A stretch of DNA of 64,000 bases, taken from Stegostoma tigrinum (taxonomy: Eukaryota). The translations under genes and the position numbers were made by a program. Shown piece by piece: positions 2,176 through 55,675 of the stretch. Every line of letters begins with the position of its first letter. The stretch's first letter is position 1. The stretch covers positions 96,145,187 through 96,209,186 of the forward strand of contig NC_081362.1 of the NCBI RefSeq assembly GCF_030684315.1, in the 5' to 3' direction. The notes beneath the pieces are model-generated. The model was given only the letters and a program-made list of their open reading frames with translations. It had not been told where the DNA came from and searched no databases.

Positions 2176-2354
2176 GGTGTAAATTTATTCATCAAGTCCA
2201 AAAGGACTGCGGATGCTGGGTATCAGAAACAAAAACAGAAATTGCTGGAAAAACTCAGCAGATCTGGCAGTATCTGTGGAGAGAAATTAGAGTTAATGTT
2301 TCAGGCCCAGTCACCTTCCTCAGAATTGATTCATTCAACATCTTTCTCTTAAAG

Positions 2355-6479: not shown

Positions 6480-7010
6480 AACAGTGACAGGAGTTGGCCA
6501 TTCGGCCCCTCAAGTCTTCTTTGCAATTCAATATGCTCATGACTGATTCAACATTCCTCACGTCCACTTTCCTGCCTTCCTCTGTAGCCCTCGATTTCCC
6601 AATTGACCAAGAACCTGTTGACATTTGCCTTTCAATCTGAAGGGCTCTGTCCCATAGCTCTCTGTGGCAAGGAGTTCCAACAGCTCACATTCCCTTGAGA
6701 GAAGAAATTCCTCCTCATTTCAGACTTAAATCACATTCCTTTTTTCCTGTGACGATGGCCTCTAACCCCAGACTCTCCCATGATCCTCTCCCAGTTTGCC
6801 CTGTCAAAGCCCCTTAAGAATCCTGTTTGTTGCAATGAGATCACAACTCATTCTTCTAAACTCCTGGGAGTAGAGTCCCAACTTGTTTAGCCTTTGCTCA
6901 AAAGACAATCGCTCTGCACCAGAGACCACCCCAGTGAGCCTTCTTTGAACTGTCTCTGTTAAATCATAGCTTTTAATAAGCAGGAACAAAAACAGCTGTC
7001 CGCACTGCAC
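6480..7010 (-). mobile_element. CR1 3' fragment
   Basis: ORF 6804-7010: VQRRLTG...LGLYSQEFRRM. Confidence 0.8.
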
Positions 7011-7926
7011 ATGTGCAGTTGCCTCCTTCAGTCTTCACAGCGACGTAACCTTGAAGAGGAGAGCCCTCTCAGTGTCTGGAGAGATGATGGAATGTTCATT
7101 CTGAGCAAAGGACTCATAGGCCCAGAATATCTTAACTAACATTCAAAAGATAAAGACTATTGCTTCCTCCTGATGCTGTAATTGTTACCTTTGACTTTGT
7201 GAAGATTGTTTGAATCTAGCAGTGAGTGTAAATCCAACGAGAAGTTGAAGCATTGTCTGAGCATAGGGAGCCCACCGGAACCCCGTATCCAGCTGAGTCT
7301 AGCTACTATTCTCCATGACCCTCCAGCACAGGATGCAGTACCGTTTTACTAGAGAGACACTCAAACAGAATTGAAATGTTTCTGATTCACCATGAGCTCT
7401 GTGTTCTTGTGACACCCATATCAATCTGTCTTCTGTCTCCAAACGTGAGTTAGTTTCATGTTGTGTGTGGGATATGGGCATCAGTGGCTGGGCCCAGCAA
7501 TTATTATCTATCCCTAGTTGCCCTGGAGATGCTGCCGGTGAGCTACCTTCTTGAACCTCTGCAGTCCAGTGCACATGCTGTGTTTATTGAGTTGGGATGG
7601 AAAGAGTGAATTTCTCAAATCATCAGCTCCTAATATGAGCTGCAGAACGGGGTCTCGATTGGGAACCAGAGACTCGTGATTTCTCCTTGTCCCAAAAACA
7701 AACCACTTTCTCCCAGTGCTCCCGGCTGGGACATCCTTTCTGAATCTGTGGGATAAGACAGATAAAACTGATTCAACCTGTAAATACTTTTCTAAATAAT
7801 TGGTTTATTGATGTTAAAACATGTGACATTTACAGATTAGTACAGTTTGAAACTTATGTAAATCAGAAGCTGAAGTCAGCTCTCTTTCTGAAAGACAGAG
7901 GGTTAATCCTTCATTACTCTTAAACA

Positions 7927-8173
7927 AGGCACAGTGGCTCAGTGGTTCGCACTGCTGGTTCACAGTGCCAGAGACCTGGATTTGATTCCATCCTTTGGCA
8001 ACTGTCTGTGTGGAACTTGCATGTTCTCCCCGTGTCTGCATAGGCTTCCTCCCACAGTCCAAAGGTGTGCAGGCTAGGTGGCTTGCCTGTAGTGTCTGGG
8101 GGTGGGATACTCTGAGGGTCGGTGTGGACATGTTGGGACAAAGGGCCTCTTTCTATTCTGTCAGGATTCTATG
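7927..8173 (+). mobile_element. V-SINE (HE1-like), internally deleted
   Basis: Head ggcacagtggctcagtgg plus V core. Confidence 0.85.
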
Positions 8174-8422
8174 ACACTCTCTGTTGTGGTCAAGTTGCTG
8201 GGAAATGTTTGGATTCATTGTTATTTTTAAATCGACTTGTTCTGATGCACCCTTTGCGGCAGCTGGGATTTGAATCCAGACAATCATTCTTTTCATCTTT
8301 AAGCATGGTTGAAAAGATCGTAGTGAATGTTGTAAAACCCATGAGCACTGAGAGTGTGAAAAACTCAGTCTTATTGTTGTGTGGTAAATGTGTAAAATGT
8401 CTAATGTGTGGCATTTATTTAG

Positions 8423-8466
8423 GAGCCCTGTTGAAGATCAGGATGCTGTGTATGCAACAGTAAATG
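8423..8466 (+). CDS. Gene A cytoplasmic exon 1 with ITIM-like AVYATV
   Basis: Acceptor tttatttag|G, donor G|GTAAGC; 44 nt, phase 2-1, matching the TM exon. Encodes (W)SPVEDQDAVYATVN. Confidence 0.75.
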
Positions 8467-8846
8467 GTAAGCAAGTTAGCTTATGTTTAGAGCATGTCAT
8501 TTTCTGGTTAACGCAATTTATATTCGCACATATTCACTGGAGATATATTCTTTAACAATGGAACTTGCGTATACAACACAACAATCAGAAAGCAAACCAA
8601 AACATGCTACGTCTCCATATTTATTACAGTGAGAAGAACCTTAACACACTCATTAATACAATGTTTTATCCACATTCCCATCACTCTCCATCACAGAGAC
8701 AAAAGTCTACAGAAATTACACTCCACTCTAAATCTTTCATTCTTCCAATGAACTGACACCTGCTCATTTCTTTGTTTGAACAATCAAAACCATTCCACGA
8801 CTTTTCTCTGAATCCAGTTGCATGGATCTATCACTATTCCAATGGC

Positions 8847-9190
8847 AGGTGTTTCTGGAATAAATAGGGAGAGAGGAGGAGGCGGACTGAAGATGGAGAG
8901 AAAAGAAGATAGGTGGAGAGGAGAGTATAGGTGGGGAGGTAGGGAGGGGATAGGTCAGTCCAGGGAAGACAGACAGGTCAAGGATGTGGGATGAGGTTAG
9001 TAGGTAGGAAATGGAGGTGCGGCTTGGGGTGGGAGGAAGGGATGGGTGAGAGGAAGAACAGGTTAGGGAGGCAGAGACAGGCTGGGCTGGTTTTGGGATA
9101 CAGTGGGTGGAGGGGAAGAGCTGGGCTAGTTGTGTGATGCAGTGGGGGGAGGGGATGAAATGGGCTGGTTTTGGGATGTGGTGGGGGCTG
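8847..9190 (-). mobile_element. Penelope-like fragment in a gene A intron
   Basis: Matches 36447-36780; flanked by the direct repeat TTCCAATGGC (8837-8846, 9191-9200). Confidence 0.85.
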
Positions 9191-9588
9191 TTCCAATGGC
9201 TTAGCTTTTTCTCAATTTGAACAACCTGAAGATTCCTGTCTCAAATTTACCCTGCTCGGAAAACTTCGCAAACATTGCTGTTGTGGAGGTTGGATTCCGC
9301 TCCACTGAAAATTCCAGATGGCAAAGAAGTTCAAACTTCATCCTGAATTCAACTCTTAATTATTTTCAACTTAACCATATTAGATCTTTGAAATTGCGGT
9401 GCTCTCCATGTGATAAGTTTGTCTGATTGATGTGATAGACGTTATAATAGAGGAGTACCCAGAATTCACATTCCGCTAGACCAGACCAAAGTGATTCTGG
9501 CATTTTGACCTCACTACCCTTCCCAGTTCAAAGATCTCACTTGTGACTTGGCTCCATTCTGAAGAGGTGTCATTGCATTTTCTTGCAG

Positions 9589-9632
9589 ATCGAACACACA
9601 GCAGTGACCAAGCAGCTGTTCCTCCTGTTGTG
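9589..9632 (+). CDS. Gene A cytoplasmic exon 2
   Basis: Acceptor ttttcttgcag|AT, donor GTG|GTAAGG; 44 nt, phase 1-0. Encodes DRTHSSDQAAVPPVV and bridges the phases of the neighbouring exons. Confidence 0.75.
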
Positions 9633-10339
9633 GTAAGGAAATGGGACATCACTGTGGGTTTTTGCTGCATTTTTAACACCAGGGCTTTGAGAAACATGAG
9701 CCACATCTGGGATGAACTTCAGAATCACCAGAATAATTACAAAGCATAAATCATAACAAACAGAAATTCTCTGTTCCACAACAGGCTCTGAATGAAAATA
9801 ATCAAAGAGAGATCGATCGCTTGCTTCTTTTGAAACTTGCAACAAGTTGCAAGGACAGAAATGTCCCCAAACTTCTAGTGCCTGGGAAATGCTCCTACAC
9901 TTTGTGGGATTGTGATCACAGACAGTATGCCCGAGGGATGGGCGTTCCTCCTAATGGTTTGTTCAATTTCAGGGGATCCTCCGAGGTCTGAGATTAAGAA
10001 GGGAAAATGAACCACAGCCTGCTCCTGACTCAGGCAATATGGCTGCAGTTTAATCTCAGCCCCTTCCTTCACTATCCCCAATGTTCTTCATTCCCTCAGT
10101 ATCCAAGCAATTCCTTTTTGGAGTCTTTGAGGAGCTGAAACCCTCAACATGCCCTGGGTCAGGAAGATTCAATCTTTGCTTTGCTCCAAATGAGCTGTCT
10201 GCAGCTGGGGGAGAGAGGAGCTTGGCTTCATCGACCTTAACACCCAAGATGATGAAGGGAGAATGAGCCAGAATTGCAGCTTTTCCCTAGTGGATCATGA
10301 TCCAGGCATCCTTTGATACCAGGCAGGAGTCAGTAACGA

Positions 10340-10660
10340 CCCTCTTGCTGCTCAATCGGATGAGTGGTAATTCTAGCCTCACTGCATAGATTTGAGCACA
10401 GATTTTAGGCTGAATATCCAGTGCAGTACTGAGTGTGTGCTGCAGTGTAAAAGCTGCCACTCTTTTGGATGAAGAATGAAATCCTGATCCTCTCTGCTGC
10501 CTTGGATGGATGTAGCACATCCCAGGGCATTGCTTTGGCAGAGAGCCGAGAGATTCTACTGAACTCTCTGAGTGATGTGTGTCTCTTCCCCAACAATCAT
10601 CAGAATGGAGCATCTGCTCAGTGCTGCTGCTGGGATCTTGCTGTGTATAAATGAACAACT
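10340..10660 (+). mobile_element. Ancient Deu-domain SINE (SacSINE/AmnSINE-like)
   Basis: ttgagcacag...taggctga...ccagtgcagtactgagtgtgtgctgcagtgt...ttttggatga resembles the Deu-domain consensus as recalled. Confidence 0.65.
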
Positions 10661-10709
10661 CCTGGTATTTCTGAGAAAAATAATGAGTGATGTTTCTGTT
10701 TGATTCCAG

Positions 10710-10832
10710 CTGGCTGAAGGGGAATGTCATTATGCTGAGGTTCACTTTCACCCACAAGGAGCCAACCGGCCGACAGTGACAGCTGCTGAAAGTAACTCGG
10801 AGTACGCAGTTGTAAAACGGGCAAGAAACTGA
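10710..10832 (+). CDS. Gene A terminal coding exon with tandem ITIM-like motifs (CHYAEV, SEYAVV)
   Basis: Acceptor tgtttgattccag|C, phase 0. Encodes LAEGECHYAEVHFHPQGANRPTVTAAESNSEYAVVKRARN followed by TGA at 10830-10832. Confidence 0.82.
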   Translation: MAEGECHYAEVHFHPQGANRPTVTAAESNSEYAVVKRARN

Positions 10833-27376: not shown

Positions 27377-27428
27377 ATGCTCCTTATTATTCTCCTTGTG
27401 ACCACATTGACTCTCTCTGCTGATGCTG
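27377..27428 (+). CDS. Gene B leader (signal peptide) exon
   Basis: ATG in ccaagATGc context; encodes MLLIILLVTTLTLSADA; donor G|GTGAGT, phase 1, compatible with the V exon at 33742. Confidence 0.8.
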
Positions 27429-36330: not shown

Positions 36331-39300
36331 ACAAGATAATAAAATGTGAGGCTGGATGAACACAGCAGCCCCAGCAGCATCTCAGGAGCACAAAAGCTGA
36401 CGTTTTGGGCCGAGACCCTTCATCAGAGAGGGGGATGGGGTGAGGGTTCTGGAATAAATAGGGACAGAAGGGGAGGCGGACCGAAAATGGAGAGAAAAGA
36501 AGATAGGTGGAGAGGAGAGTATAGGTGGGGAGGTAGGGAGGGGATAGGTCCGTCCAGCGCAGATGGACAGGTCAAGGAGGTGGGATGAGGTTAGTAGGTA
36601 GGAGATGGAGGTGCGGCTTGGTGTGGAAGGAAGGGATGGGTGAGGGGAAGAACAGATTAGGGAGGCAGAGACAGGTTGGACTGGTTTTGGGATGCAGTGG
36701 GTGGAGGGGAAGAGCTGGGCTGGTTGTGTGGTGCAGTGGGGGGAGGGGACGAACTGGGCTGGTTTTGGGGTGCGGTGGGGGAAGGGGAGATTTTGAAGCT
36801 GGTGAAGTCCACATTGATAACATTGGGCTGCAGGGTTCCCAAGCGGAATATGAGTTGCTGTTCCTGCAACCTTTGGGTGGCATCATTGTGGCACTGCAGG
36901 AGGCCCATGATGGACATGTCGTCTAAAGAATGGGAGGGGGACTGGAAATGGTTTGCGACTGGGAGGTGCAGTTCTTTATTGCGAACCGAGCGGAGGTGTT
37001 CTGCAAAGCGGTCCCCAAGCCTCCGCTTGGTTTCCCCAATGTAGATGAAGCCGCACCGGGTACAATGGATGCAGTATGCCACATTGGCAGATGTGCAGGT
37101 GAACCTCTGCTCAATATGGAGAGTCATCTTGGGGCCTGGGATAGGGGTGAGGGAGGAGGTGTGGGGGCAAGTGTAGCATTTCCTGCGGTTGTAGGGGAAG
37201 GTGCTGGGTGTGGTGGGGTTGGAGGGCAGTGTGGAGCAAACAAGGGAGTCACGGAGAGAGTGGTCTCTCCGGAAAGCAGACAGGGGTGGGGATGGAAAAA
37301 TGTCTTGGGTGTTGGGGTCGGATTGTAGATGGCGGAAGTGTCGGAGGATGATGCGTTGTATCCGGAGGTTGGTGGGGTGGTGTGTGAGAACGAGGAGGAT
37401 CCTCTTTGGGCGGTTGTGGTGAGGGTGGGGTGTGAGGGATGTGTTGCGGGAAATGCGGGAGACGCGGTCAAGGGCGTTCTCGACCACTGTGGGGGGAAAG
37501 TTGCGGTCCTTGAAGAACGTGGACATCTGGGATGTGCGGGAGTGGCATGCCTCATCATGGGAGCAGATGCGGCGGAGGCGGAGGAATTGGGAATAGGGGA
37601 TGGAATTTTTGCAGGAGGGTGGGTGGGCGGAGGTGTATTCTAGGTAGCTGTGGGAGTCGGTGGGCTTGAAATGGACATCAGTTACAAGCCCTTTGGTCCT
37701 GGAACTCCCTACCTACGTCCGTGACACCACCCACACCCTGCACTTCCTCCAGGACTTCCAATTCCCTGGCCCCCAACACCTCATTTTCACCATGAACGTC
37801 CAGTCCCTATACACCTGTATTCCGCATGCAGATGGCCTCAAGGCCCTCCGCTTTTCCCTGTCCTGCAGGCCCAACCAGTCCCCCTCCACTGACACCCCCA
37901 TCCGCAGAGCCGAACCCGTCCTCACCCTCAACAACTTCTCTTTCGATTCCTCCCACTTCCTACAGACAAAGGGGGTGACCATGGGCACCAGCATGGGCCC
38001 CAGCTATGCCTGCCTCTTTGTAGGTTACGTGGAACATTCCCTCTTCCGCACCTACACAGGCCCCAAACCCCACCTCTTCCTCCGTTACATTGATGAATGT
38101 ATCGGCGCCGCCTCTTGCTCCCCAGAGGAGCTCGAACAGTTCATTCACTTCACCAACACCTTCCACCCCAACCTTCAGTTCACCTGGGCCATGTCCAGCA
38201 CATCCCTCACCTTCCTGGACCTCTCAGTCACCATCTCAGGCAACCAGCTTGTAACTGATGTCCATTTCAAGCCCACCGACTCCCACAGCTCCCTAGGATA
38301 CACCTCCTCCCACCCACCCTCCTGCAAAAATTCCATCCTCTATTCCTAATTCCTCCGCCTCCGCCGCATCTGCTCCCACAATGAGGCATTCCACTCCCGC
38401 ACATTCCAGATGTCCACGTTCTTCAAGGACCGCAACTTTCCCCCCACAGTGGTCGAGAACACCCTTGACCGCGTCTCCCGCATTTCCCACAACACATCCC
38501 TCACACCCCGCCCCCACCACAACCGCACAAAGAGGATCCTCCTCGTTCTCACACACCACCCCACCAACCTCCGGATACAACGCATCATCCTCCGACACTT
38601 CTGCCATCTACAATCTGACCCCACCACCCAAGACATTTTTCCATCCACTCCCGTGTCTGCTTTCCAGAGAGACCACTCTCTCCGTGTTTCCCTTGTTTGC
38701 TCCACACTGCCCTCCAACCCCACCACACCCGACATCTTCCCCTGCAACCGCAGGAAATGCTACACTTGCCCCCACACCTCCTCCCTCACCCCTATCCCAG
38801 GCACCAAGATGACTTTCCATATTAAGCAGAGGTTCACCTGCACATCTGCCAATGTGGTGTACTGTATCCATTGTACCCGGTGTGGCTTCCACATTGGGGA
38901 AACCAAGCGGCAGCTTGGGGACCGCTTTGCAGAACACCTCCGCTCGGTTCGCAATAAACAACTGCACCTCCCAGTCGCAAACCATTTCCAGTCCCCCTCC
39001 CATTCTTTAGATGACATGTCCATCATGGGCCTCCTGCAGTGCCACAATGATGCCACCCAAAGGTTGCAGGAACAGCAACTCATATTCCACTTGGGAACCC
39101 TGCAGCCCAATGTTATCAATGTGGACTTCACCAGCTCCAAAATCTCCCCTTCCCCCACCGCACCCCAAAACCAGCCCAGTTCGTCCCCTCCCCCCACTGC
39201 ACCACACAACCAGCCCAGCTCTTCCCCTCCACCCACTGCATCCCAAAACCAGTCCAACCTGTCTCTGCCTCCCTAATCTGTTCTTCCCCTCACCCATCCC

Positions 39301-39637
39301 TTCCTCCCACCCCAAGCCGCACCTCCATCTCCTACCTACTAACCTCATCCCACCTCCTTGACCTGTCCATCTGCGCTGGACGGACCTATCCCCTCCCTAC
39401 CTCCCCACCTATATTCTCCTCTCCACCTATCTTCTTTTCTCTCCATCTTCGGTCCGCCTCCCCCTCTCTCCCTATTTATTCCAGAACCCTCACCCCATCC
39501 CCCTCTCTGATGAAGGGTCTAGGCCCGACACGTCAGCTTTTGTGCTTCTGAGATGCTGCTGGGGCTGCTGTGTTCATCCAGCCTCACATTTTATTATCTT
39601 GGATTCTCCAGCATCTGCAGTTCCCATTATCACTGAT
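36331..39637. mobile_element. Penelope-like retroelement (RT + GIY-YIG endonuclease), 5'-truncated, with an inverted 3' duplication
   Basis: + strand ORFs 37660-38349 (RT: GVTMGTSMGPSYA, FLRYIDE) and 38410-39276 (NVVYCIHCTRCGFHIGETKR); inverted copy in ORF 36657-37526 (IYIGETKRRLGDRFAEH). 13-bp TSD ACAAATCTCTGAT at 36318-36330 and 39638-39650. Confidence 0.93.
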
Positions 39638-41029: not shown

Positions 41030-41164
41030 TCCCTGCAGTGGGAATGAACAGAGAGCTGTGGATAGTCTGGATCAGCGTGGGAGCTGCCCTGGGAGCTACT
41101 CTCATCGCTGGAGCTGCTCTTCTCTTCTGTATCAGATGCACTCGGTCTGGAAAACAGTCATCTT
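41030..41164 (+). CDS. Gene B transmembrane exon with GxxxG and juxtamembrane CxxC
   Basis: Acceptor tgtgtttccag|TC, donor T|GTAGGT; 135 nt, phase 1-1. Encodes VPAVGMNRE-LWIVWISVGAALGATLIAGAALLF-CIRCTRSGKQSS. Confidence 0.82.
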
Positions 41165-42304
41165 GTAGGTGGAAATCAATCTTTCACTGAAACGGCCACA
41201 TTAGGAAGAGTTTTCCTCATGATTGAAGGTTGGGGTGGGCAAAGAGAGGAATGTTCAAAATACTCAGAGCAGCCTTTGTGGAGAAAGAGAGTTCAAATCA
41301 GTTTTTCATCAAAAATGTGAGGCATTAGAGATGGAGAGTTTTTCACAGAAGTACATTACCCAGGGGAAAGACTGAAGCTGTCTTGTCTGCTCAATTTCCA
41401 GCTGCATTTTCTGATTTTGTTTCAGATTTCCCAAATCTACAGCATTTTAACATCCACTCTCTCAACCACTGATGCCCAAAACCAACAGTGTGTCCCTTCT
41501 ATAAGACACACCACACAAATTCACCAAAGATCTTCACACAGCATCTTCTAAACACATGGCCACTTCCACCTGGAAGGACAAGAGCAGCAGATACATGGGA
41601 ACACTACACCCTGCAATTCCCCTTCAAGCCAGTCACCATCCTGACTCAGAAATATTTCATTGTTCCTTCAGAGTCACTGGGTCAAAATCCTGGAATTCCC
41701 TCCCTAAGGGCATTGAGGATGAACCCACAGCACATGGGCTGCAGCAGTTCAAGAAGGCAGCTCATTACCACCTTCAAGGTGTAGCTAAGGACAGGCAACA
41801 AACGATGGCCTTGCCAGTAACAGCTACTTCCCATGAGTGAATGAAAAAAGTGTTAATTTTAATTATTTGGTGCCAATTGCCCTCAATAGACAAGGTCTCT
41901 TTTCCTAGGGAGTTGGATTTCAGGACTAGGGGGTATAACTGTCAGGTGAGAGAAGAAAGATTTTAAAAAGACACGGGGGCAATTTCTTTGGCACAGAGAA
42001 TGGTTTGTGTGTGGAATGAACTCCCAGAGGAAGTGGCAGATGTGAATACAATTGCAACGTTTAAAAGACATCCAAAAAAGTACATGAATAAGAAGTGTCT
42101 GGAGGGATATGGGTCAGGTGCTGGCAGGTGGGACCGGTTTAGGTTGGAATTATATTTGGCAAGGACTGGTTGGACCAAAAGGGCTGTTTCCATGCTGTAC
42201 GACTCGATGGCTAATTGAGTTTGACAGTCTTTCCAGAAGGTTGTTATTTCTGTCCTTCTGTGTAGCCTCAGTCTTGGTGACATTTGATCTTTTTTTACTT
42301 CCAG

Positions 42305-42378
42305 CTTCACCTGTCTGTCCTGCTGATAATTTGCCAGCCCCAGATAATGAACCCGTCTCTTTCTCTGGAGACACACAG
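42305..42378 (+). CDS. Gene B cytoplasmic linker exon
   Basis: Acceptor ctttttttacttccag|CT, donor CAG|GTTGGT; 74 nt, phase 1-0. Encodes SSPVCPADNLPAPDNEPVSFSGDTQ. Confidence 0.68.
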
Positions 42379-45324
42379 GTTGGTTGAGTTGTTTTGTGCA
42401 AGGTGTTTCTCAGCTCATTTGGCTCAATGTTTCAGATGGGAAGAAGGACAATGCCAATGGTGTTCGTACTCGGTGGACCAGCTTTTGGCATTTTCCAGAG
42501 GCTATTCTTCCTGTCTTGCCCATGCTTGAAGAATGGTGTTCCTCACACTGTGTTGAACTGATTGCCTCCCTATAATGGAGGCAGACACAGTTATATGACT
42601 TTGAAAGAAGCAGGATTTGATCTGTGGGGAGACATTCACTCTCATGTTGCAATGTTGCGCTGAGCCACAAGGTCACACAGTCCAGGCCACTGGACAAATA
42701 GACAGCTTCAGCAAGTGCACCCAACAGAGTTGCAGCATTTTTCCAAAAGCAGAATGACTTCTGGCTGTGGGATGTCGGGTGACAGAACAGGAGTGTAATC
42801 AAACCAAGAAGTGCAGACGCTGTCAATCTGAAACAAAAACAGTAACTGTTGGAGAAACTCACAGGCCTGGCAGCAGCTGTGGAAAGAAGAACAGAGTTCT
42901 CTGATGACATGCTCTCAGAAGGGGTCACTGGACCCAAAATGTTAACACTGTTTTCACTCCAAAGATGCTGCCAGACCTGTGAGTTTCACCAACTCTCTGT
43001 TTTTGGTTGTTAAAGCAGATGTGTTGGGGAGTATTTCTAAATATTCAAACATCATGCAGCCTTTGTTTTCCAATTGTGGGAAGATAATGGCTACTGATAA
43101 ACGAGGAGGCCGACTCAACGATACAGAGTTTCAGGCAGCATGTAGACTATTCTAATCATGTGATAATGTCAATGCTGCCCACAGCAATGCTGAAAAAACT
43201 GCAGATGCTGCAAATCAAGAAGTTTCTGGAAAAGCTCAGCATCTGTGAAGAAAAAAAGATCAGAGTTAGCATGTTGGGCCTGGTGACTGTTCCTCAGAAC
43301 ATGTTGCCCAATGTTGTAGTGAGGCAAGCAGGTCCCGGAGAGGCAATGTCTTTGGTCTGGTAATCCAGAGCTGCTGGTGACATCTAAATGTTATTCATAA
43401 AATCACAAAGAGAAAATTAGTCTCAGTGATGGTAATAATTGTTATCAAATTTTGTAAAAACCCATCTGTTTACTAATGCCCTTCAGGGAAGAAAATCTGC
43501 TGTCCTTACCCAGTCTGGCTCACATGTGACCCCAGGTCATATCGATGGGGTTAGCTTTTAATGGCCCTATGAAATGGCCAAGTGAGACTCTCAGTTCGAA
43601 GTTACTTTGAGAGTGGGAAACAAATGCTGGTCATTTCAGTGATTCCCTCATAACATGCAGGAAAATATTTTTTAAAAAGATCATCTGCGCATAGAATTTA
43701 CGGCAAGACTTAAGCATCAAATGAGGCATTGAGATAACCAAGTTAAGGCAAATCTTTCTCCGGTTGCACCTCTCCATGAGTCACAGAATAAATGTTAGTG
43801 CTTTATCTGGTTTGTGATATTATGTTGGGTTTAAAACAGAAAGTTCCATCAATCAGGTTCTTTGATAAACAACAATGTTATTGAATAATTATGAAACATG
43901 ATATATTTGGCAAAGATGAAATGATTTTCTCACACAGTTAAAAATATGAAAGTATAAACATTTACTTCTCTATATACACCAAAACACACAACCATTTTCA
44001 GGAAGAAAAGGGAGCAAAATTCACTTCTCTGTCTGAAGAGATTCATGTGAGCAAAAATAAACAAGCATTTCAGGCTGATATGGCTCATTGTTGAAGATAT
44101 GTATATTTTTTAATTCATAAATGGGATGGGGGCGTTACTGACAGGTCCCAGTCAATACCCAAAGAACAACATCAGCTGTGGGTCTAGAGTCACATCAATA
44201 CCAGACCAAGATTCCTTCTCTTAAGGAATTTAGTGAACCAGACAATTTTCTCCCACAAAAATCAATTCGTTTCTTAATTCCTGTTTTATTTTTCTTTATT
44301 CATTCAAGGGATGAGGGTGTTGCTCTCCAAGCAACATTTATTGCCCATCCCGAATTGCCCAGTTGGCAATTCAAAGTCAACCACATTGCTGTGGGTCTGG
44401 AATCACATGTCGGCCAGACCAGGTAAAGATGGCAGTTTCCTTCCCTAAAGGACATCAGTGAACCAGGTGGGTTTTTCTGACAATCGACAATGGATTCATT
44501 AGATTGTCAATTCCAGATATTTATTGAACTCAAATTCCACTATCTGCCGTTGTGAAATTCAAACTCGGGTCCCCAGAACATTATCTGGGTCTCTGGATTA
44601 ACAGTCCAGCAATAATACTATGAGGACTTTGCCTTCCCCACGAAAGTGTCTGGCCTTCTGTCTTATGTAGACAGCTGTCCTCAAATAGAGGCAGTTGTCT
44701 GTGGGATTTTTGCAAAGCCCAGTTTGCTGAGGAAAGGCAGCATTGAGGATTCCTCCAGTCATTTTACAAGGGAGTAATGAAGATTCACAACAAGAAGGTC
44801 TACTAAAATCCAGTGAGCTGATCTGAGCTCTCCTTCCCTTCAGACAGCTGAGCAGTAGTTACTCTGGATGCAAACGTGACCCAGAAAGCAGGCCAAGGGG
44901 ATAGTAGGGTCTTCCGTCAAGAAACAATGGGATTCACAGGATGCTTTGTTGAAAAGAATGTCACTGTTTTTTTCATTGACCCCTTTAAAACAAAACACTG
45001 CCCAATGGTGCCGCCTCAATTTCACAAGAACTATTATACAGGAAGCTCCCAGTGGGAAAAAGTCTTTGGTCTTGTGCACCATGAGTAAACGACTCAGCAG
45101 GTTCAGGGGAATTGAGTGGAGTTGAGCACATCAAAGACCAGCCCAAGCAAAGCTAGTTTCTCTGAGAGGGAATGCTACATTCCATCACTAAAAAGGACAA
45201 ATTTGAAAACAAAACCTTCTTTCAATATGGAGTCAGCTGCTACAGGAATGTCTCTGCTTTCAACCCCAATTCCCTGAACTGAACACCGGGTACTCAGAGA
45301 TACCCTGCTTTGAGAGACCTGCTG

Positions 45325-46480
45325 AACATAGAAACATCAAAAATAGGAGCAGGAGTAGGCCATTCAGCCCTTCGAGTCTGCTCTACCATTCAGTATAATC
45401 ATGGCTGATCATCCAATCTAGTGCCCTGCTCCTTCATTCTCCTCATACACTTTGATCCCTTTAGTTCGAAGAACTATATCCAACTCTTTCTTGAAAACAT
45501 ACAATGCTTTAGCTTCAGTTACTTTCTGTGGCGAAGAATTCCACAGGCTTCCCAGTCTCTGGGTGAAGACATTTCTCCTCATCTCCATCCAAAACGGCAA
45601 ACTGTTTAACCTTAAAATTTGACCTGCGGCCCCAGACTTTGTCATCAGGAACATCCTTCATGTATTTACCCGATCTATTCCTGTGGCTTTTATAGGCTTC
45701 TATGAGATCTCCCATCCTTCTTCTAAACTCCAGTGAATATAATCCCAACTGATGCAGCGCTTGCTGCACATCAGTTCTGCCACCCCAGGAATTAGTCCAG
45801 TAATCCTTTGCTGCTCTCCCTCATTACCAGAACATCCTTCCTCAGATAAAGAGATGAAAGCTATTCTCAATATTGCAGGTATGATCTTACTAAGGCCCTG
45901 TAAAGTTTCAGCAAGACATTCCTGCTCCTGCACTCAAACTCTCTCGCTATGGCGGCCAACATCCCATTTCCCTTCTTCACAGCCTGCTCCTCTGACGTGC
46001 TTCATTTCAGTGTCTGATGTACAAGGACCCCCCAGGACTTGTTGCACCTCCCCCTTTCCCAATCTATCGCCATTCACATCATAACATCTTCTTGTTTATG
46101 ATTCCAAAATAACTTCACATTGATTCACGTGAAACTGTATCTGCTATGCATTTGCCCATTTTCTTAACTTGGCCAAATCACACTGAAGTCATTTGCCCAC
46201 TTTATAGATCTTTCCCTATCTCTACACAAAATATTTGTGTCTTTCTCACTGCCTTTCCATCGCTTTTTTTCCGTTGTCTGCAAATTTGGCTGCAGTAGGT
46301 TCACCTCCTTCCTCTCAGCCATAGGTCCCCAACCTGAAAAAGAATCCCTTACTCCCTCTCGCTATTTTTGGTCCATTTGCCAGTTCTATATTCACACCAA
46401 CACACTATCTCCAACATGGCGGGCTCTTATCTTATGACTTAACCTTTTACTGGGTACCTTGTTGATCATGCTCTGGAAGT
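45325..46480 (-). mobile_element. CR1 fragment (duplicated at ~50595-51730)
   Basis: - strand LGLYSLEFRR and DFQSMINKVP; CR1 3'UTR at the left end. Confidence 0.8.
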
Positions 46481-46572
46481 CCAACACCTGATATTTGATT
46501 AGAGCGAGGTTAAAATATTGAGTATTACGCTCCTCAACATCACCTTGCTGATTTCTTCCCTTTTTTTCGAAG

Positions 46573-46956
46573 GTTCCCCAAAAGGCTAAGAAGTTGATAA
46601 AAACCCAACCAGACACCTGTAATTCACCAAATGATGGAAACATATTCATTTCAAGCCAAAACCCGACATACCACAGCATAGAGGCAAAGTCTTACAGCAA
46701 CAGCCAAATGCAGGGGACTGAAACGGTTCCAGGAGAATGCAGGAATCACAGAGAACTGAAGAAACAGCAACGGAAATTTGCAAAACACAATCCCCAGGGT
46801 CAGTCGGCACCAAAGTCTCGCCGGAAATCGACACTGAGGCGGTTCTTGGCCTTTGAGAATCAAACACCAGGAATGAGCAACCAGATCACACTGACACCAA
46901 CTGATGAAGGAATCTATGCAAATCGCAGTCAGATTAGCCACACTCTCCACAAAAAG
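46573..46956 (+). CDS. Gene B large cytoplasmic exon, copy 1 (PTYHSI, SYSN, IYAN motifs)
   Basis: Acceptor ttccctttttttcgaag|G, donor AAG|GTGATG; 384 nt, phase 0-0. Open, hydrophilic, non-repeat sequence sitting between LINE fragments. Confidence 0.68.
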
Positions 46957-47029
46957 GTGATGGTTTTGTGTTGATACAGCTTTCTCCATGGCACTGTATT
47001 GCCGCTTCGTATGGAATCATGTGATTGCA

Positions 47030-48285
47030 CAATAGAATCGGGTGGAGTCAGCACAGCTTCATCAAGAGGAGATCATGCCTGAAAAATCTCACAGGAAGTA
47101 ATGAGCAAGTTAGACTAAGGAGAACTAGTGGACGCAATATATTTGCATTTGCAGAAGGCCTTTGAAGAGGTGCCGCAAAAGAGGCTGCAAAATAAGATAA
47201 GAGACCATGGTGTTAGTGGCAAGGAACTGACATGGAGAAGGGATTGGCTGACTGGAAGAAGGCAGAGAGAGGTGACAAAAAGGTCTTTTCAGGTTGCCAT
47301 CCAGACACTAGTGGAGTTCTGCAGGCGTCAATGTTGGAATCACAGCTATTCATGTTATACGTTAATAATCTGAACAATGGATCTGCGGACATTTTTGCTA
47401 CGTTTGCCAATGACACAAAGCTAGCTGGGAGGAGAGGTAGTGTTGAGGAAGTGAGGAGATTGCAGAAGGACCTGGACAGCTTGGGGAGTAGGCAAAGACA
47501 TGTAAGATGGGAAATAATGTGAGTGAGAGTGAAGTTGTGCACTTTGATAATAAGAATAAAGGAGTGAAATATTTTTTAAATAGGAAAGGTTTCAGAAATC
47601 TGAGGTACAAGGGGACATTGAGGGCTACATTAGGATTCCATGAAGGTTAACATAATTTTAGTTGGAGTTGAGGAAAAAAAATACACTGCGAGCTTCCATT
47701 TCAAGTGGGCTGGAATACAAGAGCCCAGATGTAATACTGAGGATATATAAAGCTCCTCATATGGAATGTTGTGAGAAGTTTTGGACCCTGTATTCAGGGA
47801 AGGATGCTTTAGCCTTGGAGGGAGTCCAGGGGGCATTTACAAAAATGATCTGGGAGATACAGAGCCTGTCATATGAGGAGCAGTTAAAGGCTTCAGGTCT
47901 CTAGTTGATGGAGTTTTGAAGGATGAGGGAGACTTGAGTAATACTTGCAGAAAACTGACAGGCCTGGATAGAGTGGATATGGGAAAGACGTTTCCGCTAG
48001 GAGGACAGAGTCGGAACTGAGGACACCGCCTCAGATTGAAGTGTCGAGCCTTGAGAACTGAGATGTGGAGGAACATCTTCAGCCACAGGGTGGTAAATCT
48101 ATGGGATTTATTGTCACAAAGAGCTATGAAGGTAAAATCACTGAGTGCATTTAAGGGGGAGATAGATAAGTTATTGGATCAATGATTACAGGGAGAAGAA
48201 TGGAGTTGAAAAATATTTCTGCCATGATTGAATGGTAGAATGGATTTGATGGGCCAAACGGCCCAATTCTGTTCTTATATCTTAT
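47030..48285 (+). mobile_element. CR1 fragment (duplicated at ~52280-53190)
   Basis: DAIYLHLQKAFEEVP, FANDTKLAG; CR1 3'UTR at the right end. Confidence 0.85.
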
Positions 48286-48440
48286 GTTCCTCTTTCCTCA
48301 CGATATTATTAATATCTTCATCCTCATTAAATGACAGTCATTATCAGCCCAGTCGTTTCGGGCTCCATTCATGCAGAGCAGGACTCTGCATCCTATCGGC
48401 GCCCATCATCTGGCTCCAACCATTTGTTTGTAAAATACAG

Positions 48441-48482
48441 GAATCCAGTGATCTAGAAGCAGACTCCAACTCCACATCTGTG
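48441..48482 (+). CDS. Gene B small cytoplasmic exon, copy 1 (ESSDLEADSNSTSV)
   Basis: Acceptor aaatacag|G, donor GTG|GTAATT; 42 nt. Only phase 0 is open in this copy. Confidence 0.6.
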
Positions 48483-48643
48483 GTAATTATTTCATTGATC
48501 ATGGTATTTCAAACCAAATCACTGATTGGTATCAAGATATTAATTACACTCAATGTAATGACTAAAACCAAAACAATGCCTCATCAAACCTAATTACTCT
48601 ATCAAAGTGGAATCTTAATCTATACATTGACCTTTTGTTTCAG

Positions 48644-48658
48644 AATTTTGAGCCATGA
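48644..48658 (+). CDS. Gene B candidate stop-containing exon, copy 1 (NFEP*)
   Basis: Acceptor ttttgtttcag|A; phase 0 reads AAT TTT GAG CCA TGA. A donor AAG|GTATGT follows at 48679/48680. Confidence 0.45.
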   Translation, partial: NFEP

Positions 48659-51600
48659 TATTAAGTCAGTGAACAAAAGGTATGTTGCCACTAAACCCTA
48701 CCTGCTAAGAGTTAGCCTTTATCCCTGAGTCATGGAGTTTAATGATCTGCAGCCAGCGCCCTGAGAAATTCACAGAATTTTTGTTTGCTTTATGTGAGGG
48801 AGAAGGTTTATGAAGATTACTTTGATGACAAAGCTCAGGAAGAGTTTTGAAAGGAGCTTCCGGACCAGCATGGACTGTTGGGGCTGAATTTCCTGTTTCG
48901 ATGCTATATTTCCCCTCCAATATGCAATGTAACATCCCCACAGTGGGGACAAATAACTTTCTCATGATGACATGGTCTGAGCTCTGCTTGGCCACAATCA
49001 AACACATCTCAAGCCTCGAATTCCAGGGCTTCTCATAGTAAATGGTTGCAATTTAATTATTGAGACAACATGACTATAAAGAGACCTATTCACTCCAATG
49101 GAATAGTTACTTGCTGAATAGCTGGAGTGAAGATGTTTAGAGTTATGTTTTGAGGCTGTGGTTCACCTGTGGTACTCATTTTCACAGAGGGCTGTGGAGG
49201 ATAAGTCATAGAGTGTCTTAATCACAGAGATTGACAGGTTCTTGATTAGAAAGGGAATCAACAGTTACATGGAGAAGGCAGGAGAATGAGGTTGAGAAAC
49301 ACATCAGTCGTGATCGACTGGGAAAGCAGTCTCGATTGGCTGAATGGCTTAATTATTCTCATTTATCTGATGGGAATGTGGAAATATCGGTGTAATTAGG
49401 GACCCCCGCAGGTGACTATTAGCAGAAACCTCATTGTTGAATGAATAAGAATAACAGTCTCTGCTGCTGACACATGGGAACACAACATACACCACCCTCA
49501 CTCACCAATCATTGTACCCAGTGAAGATGCCGCATCAACAATGAATCGTCCCCTCTCCTTTCGGCTGACATTTGTTTTCCATCCCTCATTAGCCTTGAAC
49601 TGAAGGTCTCACTTGACCATTTCAGGCGATAGTTGAGAAGCACCCACATTCTTGTGGGTGTGGAGTTATCTTTAGGCCAGATCATCTCAGGACAGCTGAA
49701 TCTCTTCATTAGTAAACCTGATGGGATAGCAAGAACTGCAGATGCTGGAGTCAGAGACAACACAGTGTAGAGCTGGAGGAACACAGCAGGTCAGGCAGCA
49801 TCAGAAGAGCAGGTAAGTTGAGGTTTCGCGTCAGGACCTTTTTCAAAAATGAGGAGGGTGAAGAGAGCTGGGAAATAAATAGAGAGGATGCGTAGAGTTG
49901 GGAAAGACCGGTGGAATGGTCATTGGTGAATGCAGGTCAGGAGTGGTGGGGATTGGCCAGTGGGATGGGTGGGGTGGTAGGTGGGAGAAAAGATGGACAG
50001 TTTGTGTCAGGTCAAAGATGTGGGGATGAGAGGGAGGATTGAACATTGGTTAAGTATGTTGTCGAAGTGTTTCATGGCACATGAGATTACCAGAGGGTTG
50101 CAGTGGAAGAGAGATCAATTGAGGTGTTTCCTGAGGGGGCAAAACAACTTTTTCAAGATGGCCATCCTTAGATGAGGCTTCATTGTGGAGTTATAACTTA
50201 CTCAGGGATAGTAAGAACTGCAGATGTTGGAAACAGAGAACACACAGTGTGGAGCTAGAGGAACACGGCAGGCCAGGCAGGATCAGAGGAGTAGATAAGT
50301 TGTCTCTGACTCTAGCCCTCCAGTTCCACACTGTGTTTGGTCTTGTGGACCATGAATAAGAGGTATCACAGCTTCAGAGAAATTGATTGGGATAGAGCAC
50401 AGCAGATCAAGACCAAGGAAAGCTAATTTCTCTCAGAGAGAATGCAGCATTCCATCACCAAAACGGACAAGTTTGAAAACAAAATCTTCTTTCAATGTGG
50501 AGTCAGCTGCTACAGAATGTCTCTCAGTCCAAACCCCATTCCCTTGACTGTCTACTGGCCTCTCAGACTGACACTGCCCTGTGAGAACTATTTGACATGG
50601 AAACATCAAAAATAGGAGGAGGACTAGGCCATTCAGCCCTTCGAGTCTGCTCAGCCATTCAATATAATCATGGCTGATCATCTAACCCAGTCCCTCCTCC
50701 TTCATTCTCCCCATTCCCTTGATCCTTTTAGCCTGAAGGACTGTATCTAACTCTTTCTTGAAAACTTACAATACTTTAGCTTCAACTGCTTTCAGTGGCA
50801 GAGAATTCCACAGAGTCCTCATTTTCTGAGTGAAGACAGTTCTCACCCCCTAAATGGCAGACTGCTTATCCTTCATCTTTGACCTGTGGTTCTGGACTTT
50901 GTCATCAGGAACATCCTTCATGTATTTATCCTGTCTATTCCCGTAGGTTTTATAGATTTCTATGAGATCCCCCGTCCTTCTTCCAAACTCCAGTGAATAT
51001 AATCTTAACTAATGCAATTGCTTCCTGCACGTCAGTTCTGCCATCCCAAGAATTAGTTCGGTAATCTTTTGCTGCACTCCCTCATTACCAGAACATCCTT
51101 CCAGTGTTAAGGAGACCAAAACTCGTCTCAATATTGCAGATGTAGTCTTAATAAGATACTGTAAAATTTCTGAAATATATCCCTGCTGCGGTACTCGAGC
51201 TGTCTCACGATGACGACCAACATCCCACTTATTTTCCACGCTGACTGCTGCCTACGTGCTTTCTTTCAGTGTTTGGTGTGCAAGGATCCCCAGGTCTTGT
51301 TGCACCTTCCCCTTTCCCAATCGATCAGCATTCAGATAATAATCTGTCTCCTTGGTTTGGTTAACCTCAACTTGATCCACATGAAACTGTATTTATCACG
51401 TACTTGTCCATTTTCTTAACTTGTCCAAATCACACTGAAGGCATCTGCCCACTTTATTGATCTTTCTGTATCTCTCTGTAAACTACTTCTGTCCTTCTCA
51501 CAACCTGCCTTTCCATCCCTTTTAATGTTGTCTGCAAAATTTGGCTGCAGTAGGTTCACATCCTTCCTCTCAGCCATCAGTCCCCAACCTGAAAAAGAAC

Positions 51601-51822
51601 CCCTTACTCCCTCTCGCTATTTTTGGTCCATTTGCCAGTTCACTAGCCACATCAATGTACTAGCTTCGACACGGTGGTCTCTTATGACTTAACTTTTTAC
51701 TGGGTACCTTGTTGATCACGCTCTGGAAGTCCAACACCTGATATTTGATTAGAGCGAGGTTAAAATATTGAGTATTACGCTCCTCAACATGACCTTGCTG
51801 ATTTCTTCCCTTTTTTTCGAAG

Positions 51823-52206
51823 GTTCCCCAAAAGGCTAAGAAGTTGAAAAAAACCCAACCAGACACCTGTAATTCACCAAATGATGGAAACACATTCATT
51901 TCAAGCCAAAACCCGACATACCACCGCATAGAGGCAAAGTCTTACAGCAACAGCCAAATGCAGGGGACTGAAACGGTTCCAGGAGAATGCAGGAATCACA
52001 GAGAACTGAAGAAACAGCAACGGAAAATTGCAAAACACAATCCCCAGGGTCAGTTGGCACCAAAGTCTCGCCGGCAATCGACACTGAGACGGTTCTTGGC
52101 CTTTGAGAATCAAACACCAGGAATGAGCAACCAGAGCACACTGACACCAACTGATGAAGGAATCTATGCAAATCGCAGTCAGATTAGCCACACTCTCCAC
52201 AAAAAG
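51823..52206 (+). CDS. Gene B large cytoplasmic exon, copy 2 (PTYHRI, SYSN, IYAN)
   Basis: Same splice sites and length as 46573-46956, offset by 5250 bp; 8 nt differences. Confidence 0.68.
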
Positions 52207-53341
52207 GTGATGGATTTGTGTTGATACAGCTTTCTCCATGGCACTGTATTGCCGCTTCGTATGGAATCATGTGATGGCACAATAGAATCAGGCAGAGTCA
52301 GGCCTGCTTCATCAAGAGGAGATCATGCTTGACGAAGGTGGAAGGCCAGGTAGTGTTGAGGAAGTGGGGAGGGATCAGAAGGACCTGGACAGTGAGGGGA
52401 GTAGACAAAGGTGTGTAAGATTGAAAATAATGTGAGAGTGAGTGAAGTTATGCACTTTGATAATCAGACTAAAGGAGTGAACTATTTTCAAAAGGGAAAG
52501 GTTTCAGAAATCTGAAGCACAAAGTGATATGTGAGGGCTATATTAGGATTCTCTTCAGTTTAACATAATTTTCATTGTGTTTTAAGACAAATATAATGTT
52601 AACTTCCATTTCAAGAGGGCTTGAATACAAGAGCCCTGATGTTAAATTGAGGTTCAATAAAGCTCTAGTGAGACCTCGTTTTGAACGTTGTGAGCAGTTT
52701 TGGTCCCTGTATTCAGGGAAGGATGTTCTGGCCTTGGACGGAGTCCAGGGAAGGCTTAAAAAATAGTCTGGGAGATATGGAGCTTGTCTATGAGGAGGAA
52801 CTGAAGCCTCTGGGTCTGTTGTTGATGGAGGCTCGAAGGGTGAGGGAGGAATTTGACTGAAACTTGCAGGACACTGACAGGTCTTGATAGTGTTGAGAAA
52901 GGGAAGATGTTTCCTTGAAGAGACTAGACTCAGAACTGTGGTCACGACCCTTTATAACTGAGATGTGGAGGAACATCTTCAGCCAGAGGTTGGTAACTAT
53001 ATGTGGCGCTTTGTTACAAAGGGCGAAAAAGGCAAAGTCACTGAGTGGGTTGTAGAGAGAGAGATTGATAAGTCTTGAGGCAAAGTTTAGAGAGAGAGAA
53101 ATGGGGTTGAAAAACATATCAGCCATGATTGAATGGGAGAACTGACCAGATAGGCAGAATGTCCTAATTCTGCTCCGATATCTAATGCTCCTGCTTCCTT
53201 ATGGTCTTATTCACACCTTCATCCTTGCTACACAACAGTCATTATCAGTCCAGTCATTTCTGGCTCCCTTCATGTAGAGCAGGACTCTGAATCCTAAAGG
53301 CATCCATTATCTGGTTTTAACTGTTTGTTTTTAAATTACAG

Positions 53342-53383
53342 GAATCCAGTGACCTACAAACAGACTCCAACTCAACATATGTG
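53342..53383 (+). CDS. Gene B small cytoplasmic exon, copy 2 (ESSDLQTDSNSTYV)
   Basis: Acceptor aaattacag|G, donor GTG|GTAATT; 42 nt, phase 0-0. Confidence 0.62.
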
Positions 53384-53543
53384 GTAATTATTTCATTGAT
53401 CATGATATTTCAAACTAAATCACTGTTTAGTGCCAAGACAGTAATTACACTCAACATAATGCTAAAACCAAGACAATGCCTTTTTAAGTCTAACTCCCCA
53501 ATCAAAGTGAAATCTTAATCTATGCATTGACCTATTGTTTCAG

Positions 53544-53564
53544 AATTTGGATCCACGACATTAA
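53544..53564 (+). CDS. Gene B candidate stop-containing exon, copy 2 (NLDPRH*), completing STYV|NL
   Basis: Acceptor ttgtttcag|A; reads AAT TTG GAT CCA CGA CAT TAA. A donor AAG|GTACTT follows at 53579/53580. Confidence 0.55.
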   Translation, partial: NLDPRH

Positions 53565-54604
53565 GTCAGTGAACAAAAGGTACTTTGCTGTGGAACACTA
53601 TCTACTAAGAGTGAACCTTGATCACTGAGTCATGGAGTTTAATGATCTGCAGCCGGCGCTCTGAGAAATTCACAGAACTTCTGTTTGCTTCATGTGAGGG
53701 AGAAGGCTTATGAAGATTATGTTGATGAACCAACTTGGGAGTAGTTTTGAAAGGAACTTCCAGACCAGCATGGACTGGTGGGGCTGAATGGCCTGTTTCT
53801 GTGCCATATTTTCCTGCAATATGCAATGTAACATTCCCATGTGACTTTCTCCTGATTACATTGCCTGAGCTCTGCATATTCACAATCAATCACACCTGAA
53901 GCTTCGAATTCCAGGGCTTCTCATAGTAAATGGTTCCAATTTACCAAACTAGGCATTTAGTTATTGAGACAATATGACTCTAAAGAGACATACTCATTTC
54001 AATAGAACAGTTACTTGCTGAACAACTGGAGTGAATTTGTTTAGAATTCTGTTTGGAAACTGTGTTTCATCCCTGGGACTCATTTCCACTGAGGGCTGTA
54101 AAGGCCAACTCATAGATTGTCTTAAAGACAGAGATTGACAGGTTCTTGATTAGAAAGGGAATCAACAGTTACATGGAGAAGGCAGGAGAATGGTGTTGAG
54201 AAACATATCAGCTATGATCAAATTGTGGAACAGTCTCCATTGGCCGAATGGCCTAATTCTGTTCGTTTATCTTATGGGAATGTGGAACCCCCTCAAGTGA
54301 CTATCAGCAGAAGCCTCATTGTTGAACAGATAAAAATATACACAACATACTCCCCCTCCTCACCTCAGCCAATCATTGTATCATTGTACCTAGTGATGCA
54401 GCATCAAAGGTGAATCTTCCCCTCTCCTCTCAGGCTGACATTTGTTGTCCATCCCTCATTCGCCTTGAACTGAGTATCTCACATGACCATTTCAGAAGGT
54501 GGTTGAGAGGCAAACACATTGTTGTGGGTCTGGAGTCACATTTACATCAGATTATCTCAGGACAGCTGGGTCTCTTCCCTGAAGCGCGCTCGTAAACCAG
54601 ATGG

Positions 54605-55675
54605 GATAGCAGGAACTGCAGATGCTGGAGCCAGAGACAACACAGTGTAGAGCAGAAGGGACACAGCAGGTCAGGGAGCAGCAGACAAGCTGGTAAGTTA
54701 ATGCTTGGTGTCAAGACCCTTTTTCAAAAATGGGAAGGGTGGAAGTACCTTGAAATAAATAGAGAGGAGGGATGGGGCTGGGGAAGTGAAGTGTGATAGT
54801 GATAGGTGAGTGCAGGTTGGGAGTGGTGGGTTGGTCAGTGGGATGGGTGGGATGGATAGGAGGGAGACAAGTTGAACGACTTGTGTCAGGTCAAAGATGT
54901 GCGGATGAGAGGGAGGGTTGAACGTGGGTTAAGTATGTGGTTCAAGATTTTCAGGGAGAGGAGATTACCAGAGGGTTGCAGTGGGAGGCAAATTCACTGA
55001 GTTCTTTCTTCAGGCAGGTGGAGAACTTCTTCAGGGTGAATATCTTTGGAAGAGGCTTCACTGTGGGGTTGTAACTCACTCAGAGATAGTAAGAACTGCA
55101 GATGCTGGAGACAGAGACAACATAGTGTAGAGCTGGAGCAGCACAGATGCCAGGCAAGATCAGAGGATCAGGGCTGTTTTCTCTAACTCCAGCCGTCCAG
55201 GTTAACACTGTTGTCTCTGACTCCAGCATCTGCAGTTCTTACTATCTCTGAGTAAGGTATAACACCACTGCGAAGCCTCTTCCAAAATTGACGACCCTGA
55301 AGAAATTGTCCTCCTTCTGGCAAGATTTCTAGATCTCTCTTCCACTTCAAGCCTCTGGTAATCTCTTTGACCATATATTTAACCCATGACCAACCCTCCC
55401 TCTCATCCCTGCCTCCATGACCTGACACAACCTGTCCATCTTCTCTCCCACCTATCTGCCCCATCCAGCCCACTGACCAACCCACACCACTCCCTAACTG
55501 CTCTCACCTAGCACTATCCCACCTACCTACCCCAGCCCATTCCACCCCTCTCTATTTATTTCCCTGCTCCCTTCCCCCTCCCCATTTCTGAACAAGGTTC
55601 CTGACCTGAAGTGTCCACTTTCCTGCTCTTCTGATGCTGTCTGGTCTGCTGTGCTCCTCCGGTTCCACACTGTTA
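54605..55675. mobile_element. Cluster of older Penelope-like 3' ends in both orientations
   Basis: Repeated gaactgcagatgctggag terminal motif and its reverse complement; paralogous cluster at 49725-50335. Confidence 0.65.

Follow-up and report, generated by a model that had tools for sequence, protein, structure and literature searches.

The 64,000-nucleotide stretch of the zebra shark (Stegostoma tigrinum) genome analysed here (contig NC_081362.1, positions 96,145,187 to 96,209,186; hereafter the window, whose numbering is used unless a G000 locus is given) holds two receptor genes, both on the + strand. From its sequence, one of these, gene B (LOC125454654, whose record name is "uncharacterized"), is a member of an elasmobranch cluster of non-rearranging variable-joining (VJ) receptors and is not a LAT fusion, as which a preliminary description had presented it on the strength of a juxtamembrane CxxC and up to five YxN motifs. 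We propose that it is a single-VJ receptor of a paired family, that its tail likely recruits Grb2-family adaptors, and that it is a probable co-stimulatory member comparable to DNAM-1 (CD226) and CD28H, a reading by analogy to which we give even chances. We regard gene B as a new variant of the known YxN receptors inside an apparently undescribed family of VJ paired receptors; this family is of more interest than the analogy with LAT, and the idea of a LAT fusion adds little.

Exon structure of gene B

Gene B extends from 27377 to 53564 and comprises a leader, one joined VJ exon, a transmembrane (TM) exon, a linker and a tail. The NCBI-predicted protein XP_048391606.1 corresponds exactly to V-TM-linker-A1-A2-B2-C2 in the following set of features, and bears five YxN motifs.

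27377..27428, + strand: leader exon (split leader, 17 codons plus 1 nt), agreeing with the N-terminus of XP_048391606.1
33742..34077, + strand: single joined VJ exon with a 6-residue complementarity-determining region 3 (CDR3) and a J-like YGAGTQLNIT, phase 1-1 (V-set E=1.5e-15)
41030..41164, + strand: TM exon with GxxxG, juxtamembrane CIRC at 41128-41139 and an uncharged helix core
42305..42378, + strand: linker exon, 74 nt, phase 1-0, required for the frame
45062..55211, + strand: tandem duplication with a unit of ~5.27 kb, ~81% identical (45062-50334 versus 50333-55211)
46430..47040, + strand: likely gene-conversion tract that spans exon A together with its splice sites and differs at 13 of ~610 nt
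46573..46956, + strand: tail exon A1, 384 nt, with NPTY, SYSN and IYAN; two matches only in the genome
48441..48482, + strand: tail exon B1, its tyrosine lost (TAT>TCT) by comparison with outgroups, likely skipped or minor
48644..48658, + strand: terminal exon C1, early stop (CGA>TGA)
51823..52206, + strand: tail exon A2, 384 nt, with 8 differences from A1 (7 non-synonymous, 1 synonymous)
53342..53383, + strand: tail exon B2 of 42 nt, with TYV at its end and a tyrosine that aligns with the first tyrosine of the immunoreceptor tyrosine-based activation motif (ITAM) of sibling genes
53544..53564, + strand: last coding exon, C2, encoding NLDPRH-stop and supplying the rest of YVNL across the junction

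As the preliminary description had reported, AALLF-CIRC-TRSGK (41113-41154), PTYHSI (46663), SYSN (46690), IYAN (46912), PTYHRI (51913) and the second SYSN (51940) and IYAN (52162) are all present in a single + frame. The terminal TYVNL that it listed exists in the predicted protein, but is split by an intron in the DNA, with TYV closing the exon at 53342-53383 and NL opening the one at 53544, and is contiguous in no frame. Both 384-nt exons have an open frame, phase 0-0 and AG/GT ends. Their junction with the TM exon, on which the earlier claim depended, is found in the NCBI model, though not as a direct one: joining the TM exon straight to A1 from either GT donor goes out of frame and meets a stop within ~20 residues, so that a direct splice was rejected and the linker at 42305-42378 is needed.

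Through the duplication, exons A, B and C, terminal exons included, are each present in two copies; given that most of the unit is just ~81% identical, an assembly artefact is an unlikely source for it. Relative to the orthologs, the B-C end of copy 1 reads STSV followed by NFEP-stop, with no tyrosine, while copy 2 retains the motif; since copy 1 has both lost its tyrosine and gained a stop, the probable functional end of the tail is B2-C2. A1 and A2 differ at 8 of 384 exon positions and the flanking intron within the tract at 5 of ~226, and this total of 13 differences in ~610 nt, set against ~81% identity elsewhere in the unit, points to a conversion over exon A later than the duplication. 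Translation of nine splice routes gave five YxN with A1 and A2 together, three with one exon A and B2-C2, and two with A1-B1-C1. The five YxN claimed earlier are thus those of the NCBI-predicted protein, but the number varies with the route and reaches five only via a duplication seen in the zebra shark alone, each of the three orthologs having one exon-A-like segment. Inclusion of both A exons in one transcript is a predicted splice, for which the NCBI model is the basis.

The TM exon of gene B (135 nt, phase 1-1) could be skipped in frame, possibly yielding a secreted form. Two separate observations concern this part of the gene: annotated isoforms of both Chiloscyllium species (bamboo sharks) skip the TM exon, and the V-TM intron of gene B encloses a retroelement-like inverted repeat of 1.36 kb, 96% identical (window 36332-39601).

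The V domain and its relation to light chain sigma-2

The model of the gene B V domain has a predicted local distance difference test score (pLDDT) of 94.6, and its best fold match is an antibody V domain (Z 19.5, root mean square deviation 1.4, 110 aligned); among the 50 matches listed there were antibody and T-cell receptor (TCR) V domains only. A search of the ESM Atlas returned generic V-set, BTLA and TIGIT-like clusters. Having V and a J-like G strand with GxG in one exon, together with an antigen-receptor fold, gene B conforms to the non-rearranging joined-VJ receptors. The nearest named sequences outside its family are V domains of the Ig light chain sigma-2 (type I / NS5), which are 40-44% identical. 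The family differs from sigma-2 in having no recombination signal sequence (RSS) and no C domain, and in having a TM segment with a signalling tail: the heptamer was absent after V in all 15 family V exons extracted, as against two of four sigma-2 V exons, and the V of gene B is spliced to the TM exon and not to a light-chain constant (CL) exon, showing neither the RSS nor the joined J followed by CL of sigma-2 genes.

In a V-domain tree of 59 rows and 97 columns, whose bootstrap had not settled and in which NITR, SIRP, CD8 and NKp30 were not knowingly included, the gene B family was set apart by a weak branch (65/62) and lay outside shark sigma-2 (97/91). Sigma-2 of sharks and tetrapods, together with some VJ-C genes, joined the family in a branch (87/85, unstarred) that excluded kappa, lambda, sigma, IgH and TCR. 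A germline-joined sigma-2 V is found at G000:C60:3633697-3634023, with a 6-residue CDR3, EVWGYI, resembling the KVWGDI of the family, and heptamer-bearing split sigma-2 genes lie nearby. A recent origin of the family from this zebra shark copy was rejected, because in the tree it falls within shark sigma-2 and not with the family. Another joined VJ exon, at G000:C282:118192-118527, groups with a VJ-C protein (99/96), and we take it to be possibly PRARP-like.

Tail tyrosines and juxtamembrane cysteines in the orthologs

A search with residues 1-200 of gene B recovered 22 proteins from 2974 candidates, and orthologs were recognised in three species, Chiloscyllium punctatum, C. plagiosum and the white shark, two of which were placed in the tree and group with the gene B V at 94/95. 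The preliminary description had made its claim depend on the conservation of the tail tyrosines, and had proposed to check that of CxxC as well. The tyrosines are conserved in part: IYAN and the terminal YxN occur in 3/3 orthologs, YSN in only one of the three, and NPxY in both bamboo sharks but not in the white shark. Around IYAN the Asn at +2 and the upstream acidic residues are conserved, the +3 residue being R, Y or Q, and the terminal motif of the orthologs is YANF or YMNF, with Phe at +3 in all three. We also noted that PTYHSI/PTYHRI belongs to NPxY and that STYVNL additionally fits the ITIM (immunoreceptor tyrosine-based inhibitory motif) consensus, neither of which had been mentioned before. 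A YxN in the linker is present in the white shark and in paralogs and lost in zebra shark gene B; the white shark has four YxN in all with a single exon A, and the bamboo sharks have two.

In post hoc tests with 20000 shuffles on these mutually related sequences, Asn stood at +2 of three of the four tyrosines of the one-copy zebra shark tail (p=0.0007), four of eight in the white shark (p=0.002) and two of six in each bamboo shark (p=0.04, 0.06). Exon A as a query matched one of 93 candidates among longer proteins, namely XP_048391606.1, which is gene B itself, and a query with the white shark TM and tail gave three matches among 703 (itself and two paralogs) while missing known orthologs; both constitute weak evidence of absence.

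The CxxC is kept in one of the three orthologs (C. punctatum, CIRC) and absent from C. plagiosum and the white shark, as well as from whale, white and basking shark paralogs. At least one juxtamembrane cysteine is nevertheless present in 8/8 orthologs and paralogs, and the GxxxG of the TM segment in 7/7 sequences tested. At a distance of 1.1 Mb lies a paralog whose TM exon (G000:C11:97305904) is 93% identical to that of gene B and likewise encodes CIRC; its whale shark counterpart reads CIRI, and two white shark genes have near-identical TM segments without CxxC. TM exons thus appear to be homogenised between paralogs within a species, in zebra and white shark alike, and CxxC is labile. Given the 93% identity of the TM exons, the CIRC of the zebra shark paralog is not independent evidence. 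That paralog (G000:C11:97303632-97313560) has two V domains and a short tail, containing YEN and a second tyrosine at an exon end.

The receptor cluster and the ancestry of the tail

Searched against the genome, the gene B V matched 94 of 150 scored candidates, the best lying in a cluster of ~1.7 Mb (G000:C11:96.06-97.78 Mb), and relatives of gene B were found in six shark orders and a stingray. Their tails comprise an ITIM/ITSM type (ITSM, immunoreceptor tyrosine-based switch motif), a YEN + ITAM type, a short double-YxN type and the long YxN type of gene B. With these classes assigned by eye among related sequences, and records without a TM segment or tail omitted, YxN was found at 0/35 tail tyrosines in 11 ITIM/ITSM-type siblings, compared with 13 of 24 in four gene-B-type tails (zebra shark duplicates counted) and 6/6 in three short paralogs, together 19/30. 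The claim of a VJ-type receptor with several YxN sites is supported; the V-set exon is in frame with the TM exon, and YxN marks this tail class. The clustering of related ectodomains with both inhibitory and activating tails is the arrangement of paired receptors; the ectodomains consist solely of V domains, one to six in number, and no charged TM was seen in the activating members examined. Gene A (window 300-10832), directly upstream of gene B, is an inhibitory-type sibling with at least three V exons, a TM segment at 5381-5531 and the tail motifs AVYATV, CHYAEV and SEYAVV.

ITAM-spaced tails occur in nine sibling records, several of which are isoforms, including those of the whale shark, two bamboo sharks and a stingray. 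The last tyrosine of gene B lines up with the first tyrosine of these ITAMs, and DSNATY is identical in a bamboo shark ortholog and its ITAM sibling. Given this alignment, it is likely that the gene B tail grew from the family's own YEN+ITAM tail and not from that of LAT. The ITAM homology is one of protein alignment only, as the ITAM-type copy examined in the zebra shark looks degraded and yielded no exon of type B. Two near-identical YEN+ITAM-type genes lie in opposite orientation at G000:C11:96601559 and 96339928; the second ITAM tyrosine is replaced in the copy examined.

Signalling by gene B and alternative readings

The proposal of a Grb2-recruiting co-stimulatory receptor builds on the observed exon structure, V fold, uncharged TM segment, conserved IYAN and terminal YxN, and siblings with ITIM/ITSM or ITAM. 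Through its phosphorylated YxNx, DNAM-1 recruits Grb2 and turns on Vav, PI3K and PLC-gamma (PMC4647266), and the YxN of CD28H is conserved from sharks to mammals (PMC11599192). By this model a ligand would cluster the V domain of gene B, with the GxxxG helix aiding dimer formation, and a Src-family kinase would phosphorylate two sites, the IYAN with its acidic flank and the YVNL at the end of the tail; these could then bind Grb2 or Gads and so be linked to Vav, PI3K and Erk. One palmitoylated cysteine may assist membrane sorting, with CxxC not being required. The tail would have arisen from the YEN+ITAM tail of the family when the second half of the ITAM was lost and exon A was gained. The tandem duplication would then have supplied another exon A, with which the YxN count goes from three to five if both are spliced in.

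Several points weigh against this reading. YxN does not fix the sign of the signal, as TIGIT recruits Grb2 via inhibitory motifs and inhibits (bioRxiv 2025.05.08.652881). In the zebra shark, STYVNL matches the ITIM consensus, and both bamboo sharks retain NPTY. The YxNF of a teleost CTLA4, which the YANF/YMNF ends of the orthologs resemble, supports endocytosis with clathrin uptake (PMC11599192). A1 and A2 diverge no less than the intron flanking them within the tract, which shows no constraint since the apparent conversion, and the search for further orthologs ended at three in total, none in a ray.

A receptor that inhibits or modulates in the manner of TIGIT or CD200R, in which YxN would serve Grb2/SHIP-1, NPxY a Dok-type phosphotyrosine-binding (PTB) domain and SxYxxL SHP, seems to us unlikely. 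The NPTY of zebra and both bamboo sharks and the ITIM match of STYVNL are what such a receptor would show, CD200R signals by an NPxY-Dok route, and the engagement of Grb2 by TIGIT provides a precedent; however, the white shark tail lacks NPxY, the ITIM fit is specific to the zebra shark given Phe at +3 in all three orthologs, the true inhibitory siblings carry a separate tail devoid of YxN, and the last tyrosine probably derives from an ITAM position. We consider it very improbable that the tyrosines mainly act as sorting signals (NPxY, Yxx-hydrophobic) of an endocytic, ligand-clearing receptor: NPTY-x-x-I/F and the terminal YxNL/F both match sorting consensuses, and teleost CTLA4 is the analogue, but the variable +3 residue makes IYAN inconsistent as a sorting motif, whereas its Asn+2 and upstream acids are conserved.

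A raft-targeted scaffold in the manner of LAT, with CxxC and five working Grb2 sites replacing a separate adaptor, is quite improbable. The NCBI-predicted protein does combine CIRC with five YxN, CIRC recurs in C. punctatum, four YxN come from one exon A in the white shark, and the likely conversion tract has preserved exon A in either copy. Set against this are the losses of CxxC described above, the non-independence of the paralog CIRC, the predicted status of the A1-to-A2 splice and the two YxN retained by the bamboo sharks. The tail of LAT is acidic, while that of gene B has an isoelectric point (pI) of 9.6 within a range of 8.2-10.1, and no PLC-gamma-type site is evident in it. The tail shows no sign of LAT ancestry, its terminal motif aligns with sibling ITAMs, and no Pfam family matches A1 or A2 at E<=1; the adaptor part of the preliminary description is not supported. 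Least probable of the readings considered is a drifting tail, with duplicated exons as neutral leftovers in a weakly expressed or decaying gene. The lost tyrosine of B1, the stop in C1, the seven non-synonymous against one synonymous changes between A1 and A2, and the stops in many V exons of the cluster are in keeping with drift, but the frame is open, the splice sites are intact, the motifs are common to the white shark, and several isoforms are annotated in both bamboo sharks.

Comparison with known receptors

DNAM-1, CD28H/TMIGD2 and TIGIT, whose YxN motifs are ITT-like, share with gene B an Ig V ectodomain, an uncharged TM segment and a cytoplasmic YxN predicted to bind Grb2. Unlike them, gene B has two to five YxN together with NPxY, its V resembles those of antigen receptors and includes a J-like G strand, and it belongs to a multigene cluster. 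Its CDR3 is CSVRGSSYGAGT, without the PPP/EIP motif of the CD28 family (PMC11599192), and its TM segment has GxxxG and no tyrosine in place of the YxxxxT dimer motif of that family. LAT, NTAL, PAG and LIME resemble zebra shark gene B in their juxtamembrane CxxC and the several tyrosine motifs of a long tail, of which gene B has two to five as YxN; it differs from them in its V ectodomain, unconserved CxxC and basic tail. Unlike gene B, the LAT/NTAL-type adaptors have a short ectodomain that contains no folded domain for ligand binding, and the raft location of LAT is dispensable in normal activation (PMC2803307). The combination of features in gene B is less unusual than had been implied, since DNAM-1 and CD28H use or carry YxN and the Ig receptor CD4 is S-acylated on two cysteines at the TM-cytoplasm junction (PMC9709458). 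The likeness of CD4 to gene B is confined to an Ig ectodomain and juxtamembrane cysteines, and no homology is claimed. CD4 signals via bound Lck and not via YxN.

NITR, SIRP, NKp30, PRARP and UrIg have, like gene B, a non-rearranging joined VJ exon (PMC11599192). Compared with NITR and SIRP, the gene B family is V-only, its activating members have their own ITAM or YxN, and its cluster is flanked by GULO/nicotinic alpha and adenylyl cyclase genes. NITR and SIRP genes are clustered, with activating and inhibitory members, and SIRP has a V+C1 ectodomain and lies beside NSFL1C/PDYN. Gene B has no C1 exon. By synteny the cluster region may be paralogous to the SIRP neighbourhood, while searches for the SIRP neighbours gave no support for SIRP: SEP-domain genes were on C5 and C23 and not on C11, the 200 kb examined to one side of the C23 gene contained no V exon, and an opioid-peptide search matched nowhere. 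Full-text searches aimed at the gene B family or its V type, at shark SIRP and at germline-joined light chains turned up no description of the family; their coverage leaves out most subscription journals, so that an earlier description is possible. The gene identifiers are absent from the text supplements of PMC11599192 (9 files) and PMC12227049 (2 files), image tables being outside the scope.

Single-exon VJ genes are sought as clues to the origins of antigen receptors (PMC12227049). A sigma-2-like VJ cluster common to sharks and a ray, with inhibitory, ITAM and YxN tails, provides candidate natural killer (NK)-like or co-stimulatory receptors of cartilaginous fish, and in gene B the evolution of a tail would be traceable, with an ITAM half lost, a Grb2 motif gained and valency raised through exon duplication. 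A wider scenario, which we hold as possible but doubtful, derives the family from a VJ exon of the kind found in antibody light chains, be it a germline-joined sigma-2 of ancient date that turned innate or the surviving sister of an unsplit VJ ancestor, and makes gene B a multivalent Grb2 scaffold that went from ITAM to YxN, its count of two, three or five being set by splicing of the duplicated tail exons.

In the wider region (G000:C11:95.86-97.98 Mb), one flank of the cluster has open reading frames that match GULO-type domains and the alpha subunit of a nicotinic receptor (104 scanned), and the other has matches to an adenylyl cyclase (57 scanned); the nicotinic receptor and adenylyl cyclase genes may be CHRNA2 and ADCY3. 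At G000:C11:97363331 a family V exon lies inside an open frame of 1546 codons, and a similar protein runs on into Asn-rich repeats, which suggests a mucin-like or secreted member.

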